Positions 17,433 through 63,752 of a stretch of DNA of 64,000 nt are shown here, piece by piece. The stretch spans positions 1-64,000 of the forward strand of contig RSEE01000061.1 of NCBI GenBank assembly GCA_003971905.1, given 5' to 3'. A model generated the notes under the pieces. The model searched no databases, was not told the DNA's origin, and saw nothing but the letters and a program-made list of their open reading frames with translations. How positions within the stretch are numbered: position 1 is the stretch's first letter; each line of letters starts with the position of its first letter. The stretch is from Moniliella sp. 'wahieum' (Eukaryota). The position numbers were made by a program, and so were the translations under genes.

Positions 17433-19322
17433 GGACAAGCAATACTCTCTCCTGTGTTCTGCATCCATCTGCATCCCGGGTGTAACATTTGCATCCGCCA
17501 TTGCAGACGTTAAAGCTTGAAGAGCTTGAAGAGAGAGAGAGGGAAGAGCTCTGGCGCATCAGGCTACGCAATGCCTTGCCATGCAGAATTTCGGATTGAC
17601 CACAAGATATGTGTCCCCGCACAATAAACCTGGGACAGAGGCAGAGTGAAAGAGCGAACGGGACAACAAAAAAGGCTTGAAGCTTGAGAAGACATGGATT
17701 TGCTAGTGAAGAAGTGCTCTAACCCCCTATAAGCGCCAGACAGAGCATATCCGAGTGGGGTTCCCTGTCGCCTCTGGGCTACGAATAGAAATCACAGGAT
17801 TAGAGAAGCTGGCTTGCCGTTCGAAAAACTACTGGATATTGAACGTATCGAGCGTTAAACGTCAAGCGCAATAAGCGTGAGCGCACGAGCGTATAGACCG
17901 CTCAAAACACCCACAACTCCTCGACACCTCTATAATTTTCTGGGCGCCTCTTCTGAGATGAGATGCTGTGAGACCATATTTATTGGTTAAATGGTGGGGC
18001 ACAAAAGCTCGACGTTCTGATTGCCCTGAGGCGCTCTGAGATATCTGTGAGCGCTCTGAGCGCTCGCTGAGCACTAGGCTCAGCCACTACTGAGCCTCAA
18101 GTCTCAGCTCACCACAGCGCTCAAAGGCTCAGTGTTGATATATAAGACGAGAGTGTCTCCTGTTTTGACTAGTGTCCTTCAAGCTTCAAGCGCTAAGCTT
18201 CATGCAGGACACTTCGTATAATACTTCGTCATGCGTCACGGTATTGTACCTGAGCGCCACAAAACCTATCATGTCTGTCTAGCAAGGCAGTCTCGTAAAA
18301 ATTCGTCTGGGGATATTGCATCTCCCCCCTGTAACTACAGTAACAGTAAAGTATCTTTCGCGACATGCGATGAATGTACGCTCGCCCCTCCATACGCGCT
18401 CAGCTGGCGGTGTTGCAAGGGTAAATAAACACCATCGTGAATGGTCTGGTGTGACCTGTGTGACCTGTGACTGTCACATGCCACATGCCACTAGTCACTA
18501 AGTACTAACAGCTAACGCCTAGTCTAGTCAGCGAGGCTTTCTGAGAACTACTTGGCACGCCTGAAGGTTTTGAGATCCGGCTGATTGATGAGGATGTGCC
18601 GTGGCTGATGCAGGCGTTCCACAGCAGCGCGCAAAGCGCGCTCCAAGCGAAGTATCAATGTGTATTCCAAGGCACAGGGACACTAATCAAGCGGCGTGCG
18701 TTAACCACAGGTTTCAAAACAGTAAGACATTCGCTGATAAGGAGCCAGACACCTGCCCACACGAGCCCGGTGCCAGCCTGGGTGGGCATCTCACACTTGC
18801 TCCGTTGCCCCGAGGCGCGTTCCTGTCGGCGGCGCTGTGCGCCCAGATGGGGGCGCTGGGTGCTGGCGTCTGGTCGCTGCAGCTGGGAGAGCAGGGACCT
18901 GCCATGGCCGAACCCGCTGAACCATCGCGACACGGCGAACTTGGCTGCCTGCCCTACTGAGACCTAAGGCCGGAGGCTGCTCTAAGGCCCTGGGGCTCAG
19001 GCTGAGCGTTGGTGCCGGTGAGCCCTCCTGAGCGCCTGAGCGCTGTGAGCGCTGGGCGCCGAGGCTGGCTCGAAGGCTTGAAGCTTGAAGCTTGAGATCT
19101 GGTCGGTGATTGCCATCGATGATCGATGATTAATGATTGCGGCTGCAGCCACCGCCACCACCAAGTGCATCAGACACCCATGGTTGCCAATGTGCTGTGC
19201 TGTGTTGCGGTCCATATATATAGTCCCCCACACGCGCCCTCGCTGTCCCTTCTCTGTCATCCGCCGTCCCCCCCTCTAACGCCCTCTTTTACCATTCCTT
19301 CCCCTCCGCACGCTTCCACGCC

Positions 19323-28071: not shown

Positions 28072-28169
28072 GGAGTAGTGACGCAGCGGTTAGCGTGTGA
28101 GATTGCAACGAGTCGCTTAGGCGGTTCGATATCATCTTGAAGTCGTTGGTTCAAGTCCGACCTACTCCT
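28072..28169 (+). tRNA. tRNA-Cys (GCA) with 25-nt intron at canonical 37/38 position
   Basis: Acceptor stem GGAGTAG/CTACTCC with discriminator T; D arm ACGC/GCGT; anticodon arm TGAGA-TTGCAA[intron 28109-28133]A-TCTTG; T arm GTTGG-TTCAAGT-CCGAC. Confidence 0.93.
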
Positions 28170-42273: not shown

Positions 42274-43111
42274 GAGTCTTGCCTGCCCTGCCCTACTAGC
42301 TCCCCATCTACTGCCCTCTTCTGCTGGGAGGGGAGTTTTCTTCCCTTGCCTTGCAACAACCCCTTTCATGTCATGCCCTTCTCTGCCCATTGCTCTGCAT
42401 CCGCTTTTTCTCTGCTCTTCCCCCTTTCCGTCCCATCTGGTCTTCCCCCACCCCATCTACTACGATGTTGCGCTGTGGAGGGAACCTATATTCCTAATGT
42501 CATCGGCATCACCCCCACCAGATCCTCACCCCGTGGCGGGTGGGGCAATGTGCTTTTTATACACAGCGTTTTACATGTCGTTGTGCGACCGGTGCCCTCC
42601 TGTGTGAGTATTGCACAGTTCGGTCGGTGCTGGTTCGAATTCAGCGTTCACCTTGAACGGCCATTCATTTGCCTCATTTCCCTCCTTGAAGCTGTTTGCT
42701 GCTGTTGTACCGTGACTGGTTTTGTTCTGCCAGGGCTTTGCACACGACCTTTTAAAGAGATCGAGCAACCGGATGAAGCTGTTGGTCGATAATAATAAAG
42801 CTTGAAGCTTGGGGACCAGATGGGCTGAATTGCCCCATCGGTGCAACTCATTTGAAATGAAATGTTGGACACGTGGGCTGCTACTCCGAGGGCGCGGCCG
42901 GCTGGGATGGCAGTAGCCATGGAGTTATTGATGGAAGAAGTGGCTTCAAAAAGTGACACGCCCCCAAGATTTTCGGCGTCCACAACCACAACTCCGGGCG
43001 CCGTTGCCGTCGCGGTTGCCATTTCGTTGTCGTTGTCGCTGTCCCTCCCCCTCTCGCTGCGCTTTCTCCACGCTCAACGTGCTTGAGACGTGGTCTATTA
43101 CCAGGCTCAGC

Positions 43112-45636
43112 ATGCGCGTTCCTTCTTTTCCTGCCCATTCGACCCGCATTGCTCGGCTGTGCACGCCCTGCCATTCGCGGCAATTTGCCACCTCCAACTT
43201 GGGTCGGCGGCTCCACCCACCCTCCCACACTCCCTCGGCCGTGGTGGCACCAACGAGCTTGCTTTTCCGGCGCAACGCCCTGTCTTCGTTACCCACACCC
43301 TCCCTTGTCCGGTTTGCTTCCTCTGTCCCATCTTCTTCTTCTCCTCATCTTCTCCAACGCCCCCCGCCCAAGCCCGAACCCGACAGGACGGCCCGTCCTC
43401 GGCTGAGCCTGGTCCAGCAAGTACTTGCGCAGATTCGTCCCCCTGCGAAAGAGGGAGAACCATACCCTAGCCTCAAGAAATTGTGGGCACTCGCGGCAAC
43501 CCAAAAAAAGACCATCATTCTGGCCCTCGCCTTGTTGCTCATTTCCTCGGGTGTTACTCTCACCATCCCAGCAGTCATTGGTCGCTTGATTGACTTGTTT
43601 GGTACCGACGACACGCATGCCTTTTGGGGGCTTACCTTCAATCAAGTGGCTCCAGTGCTCGTCTTGGTTTTTGCGATTGGGGCAGCGGCCAAGGCTGGGA
43701 GCAACATTTTACTTGACATGTCAGCCATCCGGTTGATCCAAAACTTGCGTCAGCGCAGCTTTTCCTCGGCACTGCGCCAGGACGTCGAGTGGGCTGACAA
43801 ACACGCGGGCGATGTAGTGAGCCGGCTGAGTGTTGACACGACCATCGTCGGCGACAGTCTCACTTCGGATGTTGGCGATGGGTTGCGAGCGGCCGTCACG
43901 GTTGTTGCGGCGGGCACGGCAATGCTGTGGATCTCAACCGACTTGACCTACCTCATGATGGGCATTATCCCTCCCACAGCTGTCGGTGCTGTATGGTATG
44001 GCAGGTACATTCGTGGTCTGACCCACAAGACCCAAGACGCTGTGGGGAAAATGACGGATGTGGCCCAGGAGCGGCTGGCACCGCACGCGTTCCGTACCAT
44101 CACTGCCTACAATGCACAGGGAATGGAGGCCAAGCGTTTGCTCGGTGAAATCAAGGCTATTTCTCAGGTCCAAGTGACGGAGGCCAAGGCAACAGGTTAC
44201 TTTTACGCTGGCATGGGCTTTATCGGCAACTGTGCCATCCTCACTTTGCTTGCCTACGGCGGTACACTGGTCTCCAAGGGGATCCTCACCACGGGTGATC
44301 TCACGTCGCTGATGATGTATACTGCCTACCTCGGCGGTGGCCTGGCCAACCTAACGGGGTTCTTTGCCAGTATTATGAAGGGTATGGGCGCAGGGGCTCG
44401 TGTGTTTGCCTTGATGGAACGCGAGCCACACATTCAGTCCGGAAAGCGTCTCGAGCCACCCGACGCTTCCAATCCAACAATCGAATTTTGCAACGTCGAT
44501 TTCAGTTACCCTAGTCGTCCGGAGCGGCCCATTCTACAAGACTTTAACTTGACCATCAAGCCGGGCACCAACGTTGCTCTCTGTGGGTCATCGGGGGTAG
44601 GGAAGAGTTCGGTGCACTCCCTTGTGCTCCGCCTGTACGATCCAGACGCGGGGCAGGTCAGGGTTGCAGGTCACGACGTGAAGGAGTATCAGTTGGACGA
44701 GCTGCGCAACCTCTTTGGTGTGGTGGGGCAAGACCCGGTATGTGTTCTCTGCGCTCTTCTTGATTCAGACTCTGCAGTATACTGACTTTTACGTGGAGGT
44801 CATGTTCGAGGGCACAATCGCTGAGAATATTGCGTACTCGCGTCCAGGAGCAAGCATGGCCGAGATTGAAGCTGCGGCGGACGCGGCCAATTGCATGGAC
44901 TTTATCCGTGCTCTCCCTCTGGGCTTCGACACGAATGCGCGCCAATTGTCGGGCGGACAGCGGCAACGGATCAGCATTGCGCGTTCTCTTCTCCGCGGCG
45001 CACCTATCCTGCTCATGGACGAGGCCACTTCGGCCCTGGACACAAACTCGGAGCACTTGATCAACAGTACCGTCCAAAAGATTGTCAAGTCGGGTCAGGC
45101 GACCGTATGGATCATTGCCCATCGCTTGTCGACGATCAAGTCGGCGGACGTGATTGTCGTGCTGGACCAAGGCCGTGTGGCCGAGGGGCAGCTTCCAGGA
45201 GCTCAACAGGCCTGGGACCCAATTTGAGAAGCTCGTCCGCGCTCAACTAACCGACTCGAACAAAGAAACGGATGACCTGTTTTCCCCAGAGAAGGAGAAG
45301 ATCCTTTTCGACCAGGACGAGGACCTGTTTCCAGATTCCCTGATTGATGCGCATGTGGACGCGTTGCGGGCAAAGGAAAAAGCGTTGGCAGCCGAGTCAC
45401 TGTCTGGGCACGTGCCTTCTGTGTCGGATGCCGAGTTGGAACTGCACCTTGGCCTGGGCGCCACGTTGGGGCCGATGCCCAATGTGCCGGTGCCGGACGA
45501 GCACCCCCTGGATGCCATAGCAGCTGCGCAGCTGGCCGAGCATGACCGCAACGGAGGTCTCCAAGGAGGCGCGGCCATGAAAGACCCCGTGCTACGCTGT
45601 GTGGGGGAAAGAAGCCGGTTACTGTCTGTACTTTAA
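43112..45636 (+). CDS. MDL1: Mitochondrial half-size ABC transporter (Mdl1/ABCB10-like)
   Basis: Arg/Ser-rich presequence; ABC TM domain (GDVVSRLSVDT, GDLTSLMMYTAY); FSYPSRP; Walker A GSSGVGKS; signature LSGGQRQRISIAR; Walker B ILLMDEATSALD; IAHRLSTIK. C-terminal end uncertain. Confidence 0.92.
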
Positions 45637-56451: not shown

Positions 56452-57284
56452 TCTGGTGCGCTGGGCTGGTTCTGGGAGGTAGGGGCGGCAGGGGCGGAGG
56501 GATGGGCGGACAGAAGACCAGGAGGGCGATGGCGATAGCGAAGACGACGGAGGGCCCAGAAGAAGGCCGAATGCAGAGGGGCGCTTGGCAGCTGCCACCC
56601 TCCACGTCCACTACGGGGGTGCGATGACTGATTATGACTAGCTGACTGAGCTGGAAGCCGGACTCGAGCGGCTCAGACGGAGCGCCAGGTCTCGTCGCTC
56701 TTGCATTGGTGCGGCTGCCCTTGTGGGGCGGTGGTGCGCCTTGGCCCCCGAACGGCGCAGCGCAGCGCAGCCGCACAATATATTCACCTGGCGTGTGCTC
56801 TATGCAAGGGGCACCCCCCTCGGCCTTGGGGCGCCACAGGCTGCAATTAAACACGCACACTGCCCCCTGCGTGCGCTGCCACCGCTTACTGTGTCCATCC
56901 ACACCCCCCGCCTGCTCCACTGTGGCGGCGCAGGATTCAGGACCCCCGTCCTTTCCGCTCGCTCACTTCCGCACACTGACTCGGCGCTTTCTGCCCGCTG
57001 GAGGCACTAGTGACGTGGCACAGGCGTCTAACCCTATGCCCCCCGTTCGCCGATTCCATTCTGACATAAGCGTGGAAGGGCTGTCTCGGCACTGCGCCCG
57101 CCTGCGCCAAGGGGTCACGTGGCAGCTTCCAAGAAGAAAATTTGCAGGTGGAGGCAACCTACCGAGCAGCACGATAAAAGGCGTTTGCGGGCGGCCCAAT
57201 TGCCCCTCAGCCCACCCTCCCATTACCGCCATCACCCATCGCCCCCAGCATCCATCTCTTACTGGTAAGTTGTTGGCCTTCTCT

Positions 57285-57416
57285 CTTTATGATGTCTTCA
57301 TCTTCCTTGCCCGGCCTATATGACCATGCCGAAACGACAAGGCGGCGTCTCGTCGGCGCTACGTGCTTCGGCACGATTGTTTCTTCGGTGCTTGCCAGCA
57401 CCTCGTTGTCTGATCC
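57285..57416 (+). ncRNA. snR190: Box C/D snoRNA, snR190-like (intron 1 of host)
   Basis: C-box-like ATGATG at 57289-57294 and D box CTGA at 57410-57413. Internal TCTTCC..., GACCATG...ACGACAAGG and CTTGCCAG recall yeast snR190 (from memory). It sits immediately upstream of U14, as in yeast. Confidence 0.6.
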
Positions 57417-57565
57417 TTCTCATTTGCATCATGCATCGTTGCTAACCTCCATTGCCTTTGATTGCTAGCTTCAACCCACATTCTCCCTCCTTCGCCCTTT
57501 GGTCGAGGAGCCTGCACAAAACCAACAACTGGTATGTTTGCTCGCCGTTCTCGCAAGGCTGGGTT

Positions 57566-57855
57566 GTCGATGATCGATACACCTGGTATCCAACCAAATT
57601 CGCAGTTTCCACTGTAGGGCACGCAAGCCACCCCTCGTGGGTGGGGGCAATAGTGCTCCTCTTGGTCGAGAGGACTCGTGCTTTTCGGCATGTCGGTGGT
57701 GTCCATCCCCTCTGGCCTTCGGTGCGGGGTGGGGGCGTGTACGAACCCAGTTATGCGTCTCCAGCGGCCCGTGAATTGGTCCGTTTGCATTGACCTCGAG
57801 TTGAAGCCTGCCTTGCCCAGTGACGGCCCACAGACCTTCCTTGGAAGTCTGAGAC
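57566..57855 (+). ncRNA. U14: U14 (snR128) box C/D snoRNA with expanded Y domain (intron 2 of host)
   Basis: Domain A ATTCGCAGTTTCCAC (57598-57612); Y-loop TACGAACCCA (57740-57749); domain B plus D box ACCTTCCTTGGAAGT-CTGA (57834-57852); terminal stem GTC/GAC extended by GGCTGGG/CCCAGCC; degenerate C box GATGATCGA. Confidence 0.92.
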
Positions 57856-58649
57856 TTCCCAGCCTGCCCTCAATGATGCATTTGCTCAAACGATTGGGTG
57901 TACTGACCGATCTGTTTATGTCCAGACTCCTTTCTCGTTTCCTTCACGGCCACCCTGTTACTGACGTTGCTCTATTCCGGTAAGTCTTCTCGATCATTTA
58001 GTCATTGACCACTGTTCATCAGGCTTCCCAATGCCCTTATTTGTGCGAATGTTATGGGCTTCAGAAGCATGGCGTGGAATACACTTTGCCACACAGTTTT
58101 GACATAGCTGGGTCCAGTTCAGCACCCTCTCCAGGCGAACCTTCGTCTCGACAGTGGTGTGCCTGTTGTGCTTCAGGAGCGTGGGAGGCTTGACAAATCT
58201 GCGATGCCAGTGAGATCCGAAGTCCGGGTTGTCCTCGAGGGTGGCGCAATCCCACTCGTGGTGGTGGCTGTAGTCTAAGCAAACAACGCCTTCAGAGGAA
58301 CATCAAGCAGCCCGTCGCCACTAGGGGCTTGGCTGCGGAACAAGGAAAACGGATAACTCCTTAGTAGGCCTGAGGAAGGACTGAAGGGACCTTGGGCCAA
58401 AGCACGCTAACGAGCAACCCGCGGTAGCTCAACGTATGCAACTACTAACGCTCTCCTACACGTCGGCCCCTCACCGTGCTCACCTCCCCGCGACCTTTCC
58501 TTGACCACTTCTGGATCCTGCTACAATTGGAACAAAGATCGATCATCTCAATGCGACCAAAAACCCGTCAGACAAGAAACGCTGCGCCACAGAGCACAAG
58601 CGACAATGGCATTGTAGAGTAGAACCAGACAGACACGTCCATCCGGAAC

Positions 58650-59465
58650 AAGGGTGCAAAAATATTCCCTGCCCCCACCCCAAGCCCAAGGGCCGAGGCA
58701 GAAGGCGAGCAAGGCGAGCACGCAGCTCTAACACGGCTAAACGCGAGAGCACTCCCACTCCCCACCTCCCATCACCCGCATGGGAGGCGAAAAGTAAGAG
58801 TGCTGGCGACCACTCAGCCCCGAGGGCGCCGTGCTGCATCCACCGAGCAGGGAGATCAGGAGTCTAAGCCAAGCAGAGGATGAAGGGCAGGCGGCCTTGC
58901 GGCTCCACCTGCCAGCCACCCTGCAAGGCCCTCTGAAGGCACAGTCCACGCTTTAGCTTGTTCCCCACCAAAGGGTTGCCCCCAAGGAGAGAACTTTCTG
59001 GTCGCCGGCCGGCACGACCAGGGGTGCGGACCGAAAACGGCAGCAAAGCTGGAAAGTCGCACCCGATAGACACCTCAAGGCATCAACTGGCAGAGGATAG
59101 GCGTGGCGCGATACCGACATGAATGCCTGGTGCGGTCACTCCCCACCCCCCTACCCAAAAGGCCAAAGCCATGAGCGAGGAATGAGGAGCACGAGGATCG
59201 TCGAACCAAGGAACGTCCCCACAGGGGACGCCACAAGTGGAACGACGCATGCTCGCCGGCTTGCCCGTCCCTAATCCGGTAGAGGAGCGCACCGGCCCGC
59301 AAACCAGACACCCAGGACCAGTCGGCGGCTACGCAATTTGGTTCAACCTTAGGGTTAGGATCGTCTACGCCCCCCGTCGGTCCGCGCCGAAGCGCAGCGC
59401 CAGACGGGGAAGTGCAGATCGATGTGGGTGCCCGACTTGGGAGAAGAGAAGCAAGAGGATGGCGG
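58650..59465 (-). ncRNA. Candidate telomerase RNA (TER)
   Basis: Minus-strand CCUAACCCUAA (59349-59359), complementary to TTAGGG repeats, directly preceded by a long hairpin capped by cUUCGg (59360-59423). Downstream are a pseudoknot (59058-59064/59022-59028 crossed by 59042-59053/58945-58958), an enclosing helix (59428-59463 with 58915-58942), distal multi-stem domains and AUUUUUG at 58657-58663. No credible ORF. 3' end uncertain. Confidence 0.78.
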
Positions 59466-59793
59466 CGCGAACGCGCTTTTATCCTGCTGGCTCCGCCGCG
59501 CAACCAGACCGCCGGACACGCGATGAGGCACGGGGGCGTAGACATGGCGGCCAGCGACGCCAACCCTAGAAATGATTGCGTAATGCACAATAGGGTTGCA
59601 TGCAGTTCCACGTTACCAAGCGTGGCTCCGCGATCATACCATCCGGTAAGGCGATGCTGACGCGCTGACGCATGCGCGACCTGCGCACAGACCGCCTGTC
59701 GGCCTCAGCAAACCACTTGCGCCTTCCCATCTGCGTTTGTGCCGCCACCACCACCTCTTTGTTTCTCGCCAGCGGGGTTACCGCAGTACCACA

Positions 59794-60446
59794 ATGGGCA
59801 AAACCGCATTGATTTTCCTTGCCGACGGCTCGGAGGAGATTGAGTTTACCACCACATATGATGCTGGTGTGCGTAGTCATCTGGCCTGGTGCCCAGCCCT
59901 GCGAGGCGGCCTGTTGACCTCCATAACGTGTCAGTCCGTGCCGGCGTTTCTGTCACGTCCGCTTATGTGGGCAACCGGGGAGTGGATGGCAGAGCAAGAA
60001 GCCGGCTATGCCACCTGCTCGCGTGGGGTTAAGATTGTCCCGACCTCTACCTCACTGATCTGGAGGGCGTAGGGTACGACGCGTACATTGTCCCTGGTGG
60101 AATGCCTGGGGCTGATACGTTGGCGAACACTCGGAGGTGACGGCGTTGCTTAAGGCAGCCTATGATCAGGGGAAGGTGGTCGCCTTTATTGTGCTGGCCC
60201 CCTTGCGGCCAAGGCGGCGGGCATCACGGGCAAGTCTCTCACCTCCCATCCCTCGGTCAAGGCGCAGCTGCAAGGACTTCGTTTACTCAGAACAGCGCGT
60301 GGTCAAGGCGGACAACCTATTACTTCCCGAGGCCCTAGGACCACTTTGAGTTTGCTCTGACAATTGCTGAAGCCCTTGTGGGCAAGGAAAAGCGACAGGA
60401 GATCGTACCGCCCATGATACTCCCACCTGGCTGGCCTGAGGCCTGA
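59794..60446 (+). CDS. DJ-1/PfpI family protein (PARK7/YajL-like)
   Basis: MGKTALIFLADGSEEIEF; CSRGVKIVP; YDAYIVPGGMPGADTL; GKVVAFI(C)AGP (frameshifted); TSHPSVK; YSEQRVV; GPGT-like segment, then FEFALTIAEAL. One intron. Confidence 0.9.
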
Positions 60447-60833
60447 TGGGGTTGGAGACCCCGGAGGGCGCCCATCGACATTTCATGCTTACGTTTTCTG
60501 ATTTTGGTTCCTAGGACTACAAGAAAGTAGGGGAGTGGGATCAATGAGAAAGGGGATTGGTACGGGATGACACGTAGGAAGCAAAGCAGGAAGGTTTGGG
60601 GCAAGCAGGAGGCGCAGGTAAAAAAATTAGGCCGAAGGGTGTTATAACCGGTTTTGCCGTGGCTGTTTGGGGTTGCAGCAACGGGGAGGGCATGGCCACG
60701 AGCACGCGAGGTCTCTGACCCAACTCGAATTGCATCGAGTACATATGAAGGCTAGAGGCTGCAACAAAGAAAACAGAAAAAATGGTTGGCACCTGTTGAA
60801 CGTGTGAAGCGGGCCAACTTGAGGGTACGCTGA

Positions 60834-61630
60834 CTAGGACAGGGCCTCGTTGCTGTCGCTGGCTTCTGGGCCCTCATCCACATCCGCTAGCTCTGAGGCA
60901 ATGGGTCCGCCTCGTGCGTGTTCCACGGGGGCCGAAGCAGTAGCAGATAATGGCACTCCAACCTGATTCCGACTGGGTGACTCGCCCGCGTCGCTTCCCC
61001 GTCGCTGAGCCGATGTGTCACGAGATCGAGAACGGGAAAGGGAGCGGAAAAACTAGTGGGTATACAGGGTTAGCACAGCTCATTCGTGCAGAATCACAAA
61101 CGTACTGATCCAACAGGACCTTCCCGGCGACCACGCTCTTGGCTGTTGCTCGTACGGCTCCGAGAAAGCGACCTGTCCAGGGACCCTTCTGGACGAATGT
61201 TGCCGCGGCCCCTCGACCCGTGGGCGCATAATGGGGCGCAGCCGCTTCTTGCCTGCGGTACTCTTCTTGAAGTTCTTGGTCGCGTTGCTCCTCGTTCGCA
61301 ATCCGTGCCCGCTCGTCCGGGTCTCGGGAGGGGGAGCGAACGTTGCCGGCACCGCGCGCGGGGAGGAAAAGGTGGTAGGAGGGTGGTCGGCTGTCATCTG
61401 GTAGGCTGCAATCTCCTCCGCGTCGGGCTGGGCGACCACGCGAGGGCGAACGTACCATCTGCCGTGACGACACAGGACATGTTAGTCGCAGGAGCAAGGC
61501 GAGGTGGGGACAGAGTACGCACGTTGCCCGCGCCACCGCGGCCCGTGGTGACGGGGGGGATACGACCCGAACGGCCGCGAGGCTCTTCAACAATGGAGTG
61601 CTCACGTGCGATAGCGAGGCCAAATACCAT
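60834..61630 (-). CDS. DUF3602 / Par32-like protein with GRGGAGN repeats
   Basis: Repeats TTGRGGAGNVR, ARG(G)AGNVRSPSRD and PTGRG(G)xGNIR across frameshifted ORFs; intron near 61055-61105; terminal exon ends at TAG 60834. Confidence 0.75.
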
Positions 61631-63296
61631 GGTGGAATGAACTGGCAGGAAGATGGTGGGAGCGGGTGGTAGTGGTGGTAAGAATGGGCAGAAGGTGAGG
61701 GGGTGGCAACTTGCGCGACCCATACAGAACAGGGGGGGGCGGAAAAAATGCGGGGGGAGGGTGGCTGCGGCCGTGCTGGGGGACACTGCCGCTGTGCTGG
61801 GCGACGGGCAAGGCGGGGTTAGGCGCTAGAGGGACTAGGTAGGCCGCAAGCACACTGCCCCTGTGCGGAGGCTATTTCTCCGAGCCAGACCATCGCCTGG
61901 CCCAGGGCGGCAGCAAGACTTTGGGTGCCCGGCACAAACGGCGGCCGCATGAGGAAGTGACTAGGGAGGCTGAGCGCTGACGCCATGGCTCGTCTTTGCA
62001 CTGACGTCATGCGCATGCAATATGCATGCTGCTCCTGCCGAGGAACACTGGATGCGGATGGCCAGCGGACGCCGGAGCCTGGCCACCGGCTACCCCAGCC
62101 TTCCCCACCCCGCAGCCGCCACTTGTGCCCCGGTCACGTTGCCGGCGACACCAGCGCTTTGCCTGGGCTGCCGTCTGCAAGGAACATGTAACAGCAGGCA
62201 GGAGATTACTCAGTACTCCAGTGCACTGCGGATGCACCCGGTGGGAGGCTGTCGCGCTCCTGTGCCGGTGCCGGTTGTAGACACAGCCGGTGTGGCCCTC
62301 CCTGCCACCGTCGTGCCTTGCCCATCCAACCCAGCCCAACACAAGCCTCCACCCTCTCTCCCCTCAGCCCCCAGGCTTCCCTTCTCAGCCGTCTCAGCAC
62401 AACCAACCACATATTGCTTCGGGCCCCTGGCTTTCTGCCTCAGCCTCAGGCTCAGGGGCCCTAATCCACCACCTTGCGGCAACCTCTGCCCATCGCCAGC
62501 GTGTAGTCCTCGTTTCGTCTGCCGAAGCCGCTTGCACCCCAAAGGCGTACGCAGCACGCCATGCAACCCACTTGGCTTCGCTGTGGCTTTTGGCAAGTCG
62601 TTTCAATTGGATCGCCCCGACCCCCTGTCATTAAGGCACTTTGGTCTCGGGTTATGTTGTTCTGCATGTATTCAAGCGCTGCATTATGCAGAAGTCACAT
62701 GTCCAAGACTGGCTTCTAAGGCGGGCACCGAGATGGGAATCGCAATACCAACAGAGGCCGCTCAGTTGTTGGCGCGTCAAGTAGTGTAATTTAGGTGAGA
62801 TGTGTCTCCCACCGAGCTAGACACTGTCCTGCTCGCCCCCCCCCCCGGCCTTCCTACCGATCTCCGAATCCAATGTACCCTCTATCCAACACAACAGTTT
62901 CCGTCCGAAAGTAGTTTTGGCGTGCCCCATGCGCAAACACACTCACCCGGCAAAGAATGCGCACCCTAGTGTCCGTTTCAACCAATCTATCAACATCAAT
63001 ACACCGTTCGGATCGCTATGCTGCAGCGAAAACCACAAGACCCATACAGAGAGGGCATGACGATCCCATCGTATTTTTCGAGACAACGTCCAGCAGCAGC
63101 AAGCGACGTCTACCATAGGGGGGAGCCGGAGCAAAGATGCAACGCAGATGCGTGCAGAGTGCATACGAAGCGAAAGAGTGAACTGCGTCCCACAAGGCCG
63201 ACTGACTAGGACCGGTGTAGGGGCCCGTCTTCGTCCTGTAAGGAGAGCAAGGCGCCCTAGCTTCGACCTTGACCGCTACCGAGTCGAGGCACCTGT

Positions 63297-63752
63297 TTAG
63301 GCAACGAGGGTCGAGGCCGTAGCCGACTCGTACTTGAAGGTAGGGGGCACGGCGCCCTTGGCCTTGTAGTAGCGCGTGAGGCGGTGGATGCGCGACTCAA
63401 TGAGAATCAGACGGAACTTGGAGTCCATGTCCTTGCGGTTGCGCTCGAGGTGCTTGCGAACCGACACGGCCTTCTTGATGAGGTGGTACAGGTCCTCAGG
63501 AATCTGGGGCGCGAGACCCTCCGACTTGAGGATACGAAGGATCTTGTTGCCCGTGACAAAGCGGACCTGGGCAATGCCCTGCGAGTCACGCAGCTGCACA
63601 CCAATCTGCGAAGGAGTCAGACCCTTGCGCGCCAGCTTGAAGATCTGGTTGGCGACCTCCTCCGGGGTGGCCTTGAGCCACGAGGGGGGCGAGCGCCTGT
63701 AGGGCAGCGCCGAGGACGAAATGCCCTTACCCTTTCCGTACATGCGACCCAT
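63297..63752 (-). CDS. RPS13: 40S ribosomal protein S13 (uS15)
   Basis: Intact 151-aa [21 protein letters not shown]...[16 protein letters not shown]...[20 protein letters not shown] 5'-UTR intron at about 63758-63829 ends 5 nt before the ATG. Confidence 0.98.

Follow-up and report, generated by a model that had tools for sequence, protein, structure and literature searches.

Does the stretch between a DJ-1 gene and a small nucleolar RNA (snoRNA) host gene on contig RSEE01000061.1 hold a telomerase RNA gene, and if so, is that RNA made from a promoter of its own? A preliminary description of the first 64,000 nt of the contig (the whole stretch of DNA analyzed here, referred to below as the window) had proposed both. 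We read the minus strand of 58300-59800 and located a candidate RNA gene of ∼0.8 kb, running from ∼59450 to ∼58650 in a gene-free stretch. Judged by its sequence, the locus is probably the telomerase RNA gene of a fungus of Ustilaginomycotina, nearest to Tilletiaria. This identification draws on an 11-nt template that occurs once in the window and is abutted by one of its top-ranked hairpins; on the window's strongest hairpin, which favors the minus strand and sits in the same RNA; on an Sm-like site at a sensible distance; on the lack of any protein-like overlap; and on an order of elements that matches Ustilago and other fungal telomerase RNAs (PMC9564094, PMC3592445). The proposal that this is the organism's telomerase RNA is supported as far as a single sequence allows. 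The elements listed for it were all found on the minus strand where they had been placed, although the enclosing helix and the pseudoknot among them did not rise above chance. As predictions, the boundary hairpin, the template, and a 25-bp distal stem are solid; the closing helix, the pseudoknot, and the hairpin called P6.1 are only candidates. The elements that carry the argument are as follows.

59423-59360, minus strand: 26-bp template boundary hairpin capped by UUCG, −37.5 kcal/mol
59359-59349, minus strand: template CCUAACCCUAA; neither strand of the window has a second 11-mer of the CCCTAA repeat
58720-58839, minus strand: distal CR4/5-like domain with the outer stem AUGCAGC/GCUGCGU
58657-58666, minus strand: Sm-like site AAUAUUUUUG, with AUUUUUG at 58663-58657

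The template is an 11-nt complement of TTAGGG, that is, 1.8 repeat units, and includes UAACCCUAA, the template sequence that Ustilaginales have conserved (PMC9564094; PMC10035886). The repeat type of the host was taken from related Exobasidiomycetes, in which (Tilletiaria included, Microstromatales excepted) canonical repeats and the telomerase protein have been kept (PMC13234504). By itself the template is weak evidence, because a 12-mer of the repeat with at most one mismatch arises in 13 of 100 shuffled windows; 8-mers of the telomere repeat occur at nine further loci in the window. The decisive point beyond chance is the junction of hairpin and template. The long hairpin that had been described as ending at the template does so: a predicted 26-bp helix lies immediately 5′ of CCUAACCCUAA, which begins on the very next base. 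This hairpin ranks sixth among 15,984 64-nt windows from both strands, has a z score of −3.94 with one of 200 shuffles folding equally well, and shows pair probabilities of 0.94-0.99; it is stronger on the minus strand than on the plus strand (−37.5 vs. −32.0 kcal/mol). At the nine other 8-mer loci the upstream 66 nt fold at −2.5 to −21.5 kcal/mol, compared with −37.0 to −38.1 kcal/mol at the template. Upstream folds of −37 kcal/mol or lower were found at three of 4000 random positions, and at only one of these did the fold also end within 1 nt. Multiplying the ∼0.18 chance 11-mers expected per window by 2.5e-4 to 7.5e-4 gives a joint chance of roughly 1e-4 per window. This amounts to a few percent per 20-30 Mb genome, and a telomerase-positive genome holds one true gene. 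Hairpin and template together are far beyond chance.

Further along the same strand, 545 nt downstream, lies the strongest hairpin in the 64 kb (−43.1 kcal/mol among the 15,984 windows). It is an unbroken 25-bp P6-like stem at 58804-58748 with six G-U pairs by our own count and a z score of −8.79. Its dependence on these G-U pairs makes it favor the minus strand, on which it folds at −42.5 kcal/mol as against −26.0 kcal/mol on the plus strand. The stem sits in the distal domain, whose fold as a whole (−99.6 kcal/mol; z −3.80) was matched by none of 200 shuffles, between a hairpin at 58830-58805 and a 4-bp P6.1-like hairpin at 58745-58732. The latter begins 2 nt after the 25-bp stem, the position expected of P6.1. 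Elsewhere in the window, other 64-nt folds reach −36 to −39 kcal/mol, at 62049-62112 (minus strand), 18049-18112 and 19009-19080 (both strands), and 18817-18880 (plus strand); where both strands fold equally well, the pattern resembles inverted repeats in the DNA rather than strand-specific RNA structure.

The Sm-like AUUUUUG noted earlier is present ∼690 nt downstream of the template. It is one of five copies of ATTTTTG in the 128,000 strand positions of the window, against 6.68 expected from shuffles. The RNA probably ends shortly after this site; by eye, no splice site follows it and no signal for spliceosomal 3′ cleavage was seen. A 28-nt stretch in the U14 intron region of the neighboring snoRNA host gene (57709-57736, plus strand) is 79% identical, in RNA sense, to 58671-58698 (minus strand), where the candidate has the hairpin that immediately precedes its Sm-like site. 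Either a coincidence between G-rich sequences or an element common to both may explain this.

Nothing in the region resembles a protein gene. Pfam families matched no open reading frame (ORF) in the candidate region, and the two translated ORFs (59078-59611, minus strand; 59237-59566, plus strand), which were also searched in case related loci had been annotated wrongly as proteins, found no protein relatives at E up to 1; we see no sign of coding. A 20-nt query spanning the hairpin base and the template had no matches in a collection of bacterial and archaeal genomes; as this contains no fungi, the result carries little weight.

Whether the RNA is transcribed on its own is a separate question, and it turns on the sequence upstream of the hairpin and on the neighboring genes.

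59466-59489, minus strand: promoter-like core with the TATA-like box GATAAAAG (59483-59476), shared with the sequence upstream of the snoRNA host gene
59434-59465, minus strand: C/U-rich 5′ leader, as read from the sequence, containing most of the 5′ arm proposed earlier
57173-57930, plus strand: non-coding snoRNA host gene with TATA-like GATAAAAG at 57173-57180 and introns carrying snoRNAs

The TATA-like box is present at the position reported for it. It has one other copy in the window, on the plus strand just upstream of the snoRNA host gene; two copies are not unusual, as 27 of 100 shuffles give at least two. The likeness extends to the flanks: 21 of 24 aligned positions are identical between 59466-59489 (minus strand) and 57167-57190 (plus strand), reading CAGCA[C/G]GATAAAAG[-/C]GCGTT[T/C]GCG. 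That the box and its flanks are common to the candidate and the adjacent snoRNA host gene is the best evidence for a promoter of its own. The 24-nt core would then act as a promoter here, and it may be a promoter type for small-RNA genes of this fungus; transcription probably starts inside 59434-59465. Upstream, the DJ-1/PfpI exons run away from the candidate on the plus strand from 59794, 310 bp from the TATA-like box. Three collinear exon pieces match positions 1-21, 50-80, and 101-156 of the DJ-1/PfpI profile, each of them below the Pfam cut-off when taken alone. The earlier view that the gene has its own promoter divergent from DJ-1 gains support from the opposite-strand DJ-1, the shared TATA-like core, and the ORF list and Pfam searches, which gave no Emi1-like ORF on the minus strand between DJ-1 and the box. 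On this sequence evidence we lean toward a separate promoter and a stand-alone gene, not the tail of a protein-coding message.

The competing account is that the telomerase RNA is cut from a longer precursor that starts upstream, as in Ustilago maydis, which would leave it with an uncapped 5′ end and make the TATA-like box irrelevant. We consider this unlikely, even though the two published cases in the subphylum both point to a precursor shared with a coding gene, the Emi1 messenger RNA (mRNA) in one (PMC9564094) and a transcript continuous with NDK1 in the other (PMC12506658). Here the nearest upstream gene is on the opposite strand, which is at odds with an Ustilago-type origin in the 3′ untranslated region (UTR) of a same-strand Emi1 gene. 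The sole upstream ORF on the minus strand (59566-59880) overlaps the start of DJ-1 and has neither a Pfam match nor a twin Cx9C pattern. The ACGCGAA promoter motif of Ustilaginomycetes has three matches in the window, none near the candidate, and the promoter core is common to another non-coding gene.

That other gene, the snoRNA host, has a short first exon ending at GTAAGT (57266). Its consecutive introns hold an snR190-like box C/D RNA (57301-57337; 14.4 bits) and then a U14-like RNA (57562-57629; 17.2 bits). Both Rfam matches are weak and far below the gathering scores, and the 18S-complementary stretch of the U14-like RNA is intact. snR190 and U14 are also neighbors in budding yeast. Some 140 nt upstream of the host gene's TATA-like box, at 57028-57036 on the plus strand, stands a 9-mer of the telomere repeat complement, CTAACCCTA; the fold upstream of it is ordinary (−17 to −19 kcal/mol), and we treated it as chance. 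Farther away in the window, Rfam reported a transfer RNA (tRNA) at 28072-28169 on the plus strand (48.1 bits), which at 98 nt against a 71-position model probably contains an intron; ARAGORN called no tRNA anywhere in the window. The minus strand also carries a ribosomal protein S13/S15 gene, uninterrupted, at 63297-63752 (Pfam 3.3e-27).

Between template and distal domain, and around them both, the picture is less firm. The features below are predictions from the fold or from complementarity.

59424-59433, minus strand: candidate 5′ strand of a closing helix, GGGCACCCAC; if formed, the helix would be stacked onto the boundary hairpin
58937-58949, minus strand: candidate 3′ strand of the closing helix, made up of GUGG, a 3-nt bulge, and GUGCCU
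59138-59256, minus strand: variable region, predicted to form two strong hairpins (59256-59191, 59190-59138)
59022-59064, minus strand: stem 1 and loop of a candidate pseudoknot, GGGUGCG/CGCACCC, 59064-59058 with 59028-59022
58945-58958, minus strand: 3′ strand of stem 2 of the candidate pseudoknot, AGCUAAAGCGUGGA
58994-58960, minus strand: GCAA-capped stem, from the fold
58922-58877, minus strand: GCAA-capped hairpin, −27.7 kcal/mol, z −2.72, one of 200 shuffles as good

The 5′ arm that had been proposed to enclose the core (59463-59428 with 58942-58915) can pair as drawn but is disfavored in the folding ensemble. Three of its four segments have a pair probability of 0.000 in the thermodynamic ensemble, the fourth (GGGCAC/GUGCCU) has 0.31, 0.54, and 0.07 for three assumed 5′ ends, and forcing the whole arm costs ∼8 kcal/mol (−384.2 vs. 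−392.2). The GCAA-capped hairpin at 58922-58877 takes up the GGGUGG that had been assigned to this helix. In addition, the first segment of the arm starts merely 12 nt past the TATA-like box, too close to it, as initiation by RNA polymerase II usually lies at least ∼30 nt beyond such a box. The alternative, a shorter predicted closing helix (59433-59424 with 58949-58937), fits better, although it is not above chance. Its main segment is the GGGCAC/GUGCCU pairing with the probabilities just given. Its CCAC/GUGG pairing is present in a constrained fold, and it would shut the core just after the pseudoknot region. It has two competitors: a 15-bp helix (59439-59425 with 59314-59300) used in the lowest-energy fold, and an extended stem 2, which overlaps its 3′ strand.

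The variable region has pair probabilities of 0.88-0.97 (0.97 for the helix 59232-59212), and its hairpin 59190-59138 (−31.6 kcal/mol; z −4.43) was matched by none of 200 shuffles. A 15-nt motif recurs as a direct repeat at 93% identity in the G-rich 3′ strands of two long hairpins (58756-58770 and 59137-59151), which may reflect duplication of a hairpin module. The distal stems with GNRA loops of the preliminary description correspond to the two GCAA-capped elements.

A pseudoknot had been claimed as well, with no coordinates given; candidates for it exist at 59064-58945, but their complementarity is no better than that of shuffles. Stem 1 has a pair probability of 0.94, and its loop (59057-59031) carries three U-tracts, among them the segment 59053-59042 that would form the 5′ strand of stem 2. 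Folding this region by itself gives stem 2 as the pairing of lowest energy; CAGAAAGUU at 59000-58992 is an alternative partner. The RNA is A-poor (101 A in 818 nt), and by eye the AGCUAAAGCGUGGA and CAGAAAGUU sites are two of its only three AAA runs. With either A-tract as partner, one can draw the textbook layout: stem 1, a UUU loop, a stem 2 that includes three U-A pairs, and a linker rich in A.

Several results weigh against the identification as a telomerase RNA. The pseudoknot complementarity was as good in 419 and 492 of 2000 shuffles and was equalled in 119 of the 735 other tiles of the window; the nested fold of the region is likewise unexceptional (z −1.59, 16 of 200 shuffles as good). 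A motif scan, which was designed after the candidate had been seen, returned ∼10 comparable pseudoknot loci in the window. The P6.1-like hairpin has a 6-nt loop (UUUAGC) and by itself folds at −1.9 kcal/mol, a stability equalled by 29 of 200 shuffles. The position expected of P6.1 lacks a 4-bp stem closed by a 5-nt NUNGN loop; the sole such hairpin, at 58975-58963, lies inside the core. The vertebrate P6.1 motif (PMC10035886) is absent from the region and has 14 matches with at most three mismatches in the window against 19.75 expected. The Ustilaginales CE1 motif did no better as a candidate element: ATCGATCT at 59423-59416 matches it with one mismatch, and the window contains 72 such matches against 77.6 expected. 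Folding of the whole RNA shows no strand difference (z scores of −3.49 for minus and −3.36 for plus; 20 shuffles each), so that assignment to the minus strand relies on how the template is oriented, on hairpins that depend on G-U pairs, on the Sm-like site, and on the TATA-like box. Rfam gave no telomerase RNA match at the gathering score in the whole window and none at E up to 10 in 56500-60000, as is expected for such RNAs; membership of the Rfam families of vertebrate, ciliate, and yeast telomerase RNAs was rejected for lack of a covariance-model match. Finally, the taxon comes from a single protein: the large exon of a mitochondrial-type ABC transporter (42932-44785, plus strand) is 69% identical to Tilletiaria anomala and ∼58% identical to Ustilago and relatives, which would place the window in Ustilaginomycotina near Georgefischeriales.

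These results bear on the reading in which the locus is some other structured non-coding RNA or a UTR, with a telomere-like 11-mer by chance. The frequency of the 12-mer in shuffled windows suits it, as do a pseudoknot and P6.1 not above chance and the missing match to a known RNA family; short template-like sites are, moreover, found in the hundreds per genome, with 782 loci and 248 regions reported in U. maydis (PMC9564094 and PMC10035886, respectively). We nevertheless judge it improbable, given how rarely a random position is abutted or touched by a hairpin of such strength, the joint chance calculated above, and the published fungal order of boundary hairpin, template, U/A-rich region, long distal stem, and Sm-like site. 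That the region is untranscribed intergenic DNA (a bidirectional promoter, a GC-rich inverted-repeat spacer, or an interstitial telomere relic) is harder still to believe: the equal whole-region z scores would suit it, but the two G-U-dependent hairpins are weaker on the plus strand, as is unexpected for DNA palindromes, and there are just 1.8 repeat units, with no repeat family in 57000-61000 beyond short two-copy ones.

Known telomerase RNAs close to the candidate include UmTER/ter1 of U. maydis and its homologs, which belong to the same subphylum. The U. maydis RNA measures 1291 nt and is released by cleavage from the Emi1 mRNA, in whose 3′ UTR it lies, and homologs are known from Ustilaginales, Urocystidales, and Violaceomycetales (PMC9564094). 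A second, independent description of that locus gives an AAU5-6CY site and, for most Ustilaginales, a template of 11 nt (PMC10035886). The distal domain of the U. maydis RNA has a long, subdivided P6, and an Sm-like site lies near the 3′ end (PMC9564094). The candidate shares with these RNAs the template core and a boundary element next to it, as well as the 11-nt template length of other Ustilaginales. Like UmTER it has U-rich and then A-rich stretches downstream, proposed to form a pseudoknot, a CR4/5-like domain with a long P6-like stem, and an A-U5 Sm-like site near the 3′ end with no splice site after it (here by eye). It differs in its length of ∼0.8 kb, in having a divergent DJ-1 upstream and a TATA-like box of its own, in the absence of the ACGCGAA motif nearby, and in a likeness to CE1 that is not significant; the likeness to UmTER described here is one of elements.

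The putative Malassezia RNA, MgTER, is ∼500 nt long and apparently continuous with the NDK1 transcript (PMC12506658). It too is compact, and its boundary stem by the template, its pseudoknot with at least three U in loop 1, its P6.1-like hairpin, and its invariant AAUUUUU site at the 3′ end (PMC12506658) have predicted or candidate counterparts here. Its place is between NDK1 and a DUF1115 gene, whereas the neighbors here are DJ-1 and the snoRNA host gene, and its helices are backed by covariation, whereas those of the candidate are single-sequence predictions. The RNAs of Neurospora crassa and Schizosaccharomyces pombe follow the order proposed here, of closing helix, boundary element, template, pseudoknot, closing helix, and P6/P6.1 three-way junction, and Neurospora has a TTAGGG-type repeat, as in the candidate template (PMC3592445). 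They are longer, with 3′ ends made by spliceosomal cleavage, for which no signal was seen here. The ascomycete P6.1 has a 4-bp stem and a 4- to 5-nt NUNGN loop (PMC3592445), unlike the weak candidate hairpin. With the vertebrate, ciliate, and yeast telomerase RNAs of Rfam, only the general logic of the core is in common. In the literature searched, which lacked most subscription journals, we found no telomerase RNA from Exobasidiomycetes, and the basidiomycete telomerase RNAs in print were only those of Ustilaginomycetes (by experiment) and of Malassezia (putative). We give about even chances to the full proposal that this is the first telomerase RNA of Exobasidiomycetes, independently transcribed as a ∼0.8-kb gene from a core promoter of the snoRNA-host type.

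If the candidate is a telomerase RNA, its elements suggest how it would work. RNA polymerase II would begin transcription some tens of nucleotides past the TATA-like box, and the transcript would fold such that the 26-bp hairpin ends on the base before the template. The telomerase reverse transcriptase would pair a TTAGG end of the DNA with 59349-59353, copy 59354-59359, and so add GTTAGG. From the sequence and the established telomerase mechanism, the hairpin would stop copying, and the enzyme would reposition for the next round. By analogy, the pseudoknot region (59064-58945) and the distal domain (58839-58720) would serve as the two enzyme-binding sites, while AUUUUUG would bind an Sm ring and set the 3′ end.

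Fast divergence means that telomerase RNA has to be discovered separately in each fungal lineage. As a candidate from a third class, this compact RNA may help to define the minimal basidiomycete core, and the arrangement of DJ-1, telomerase RNA, and snoRNA host gene marks a concrete interval that can be aligned across Tilletiaria and related fungi. The candidate also allows a direct test of a question that the Ustilago authors left open (PMC9564094), namely whether making the RNA from the tail of an mRNA is the ancestral or the derived condition. If our reading is true, the subphylum would ancestrally have had a stand-alone gene in the style of small nuclear RNAs and snoRNAs, complete with an Sm site, and the Ustilago RNA (perhaps the Malassezia RNA as well) would have come to be made from an mRNA tail only later.

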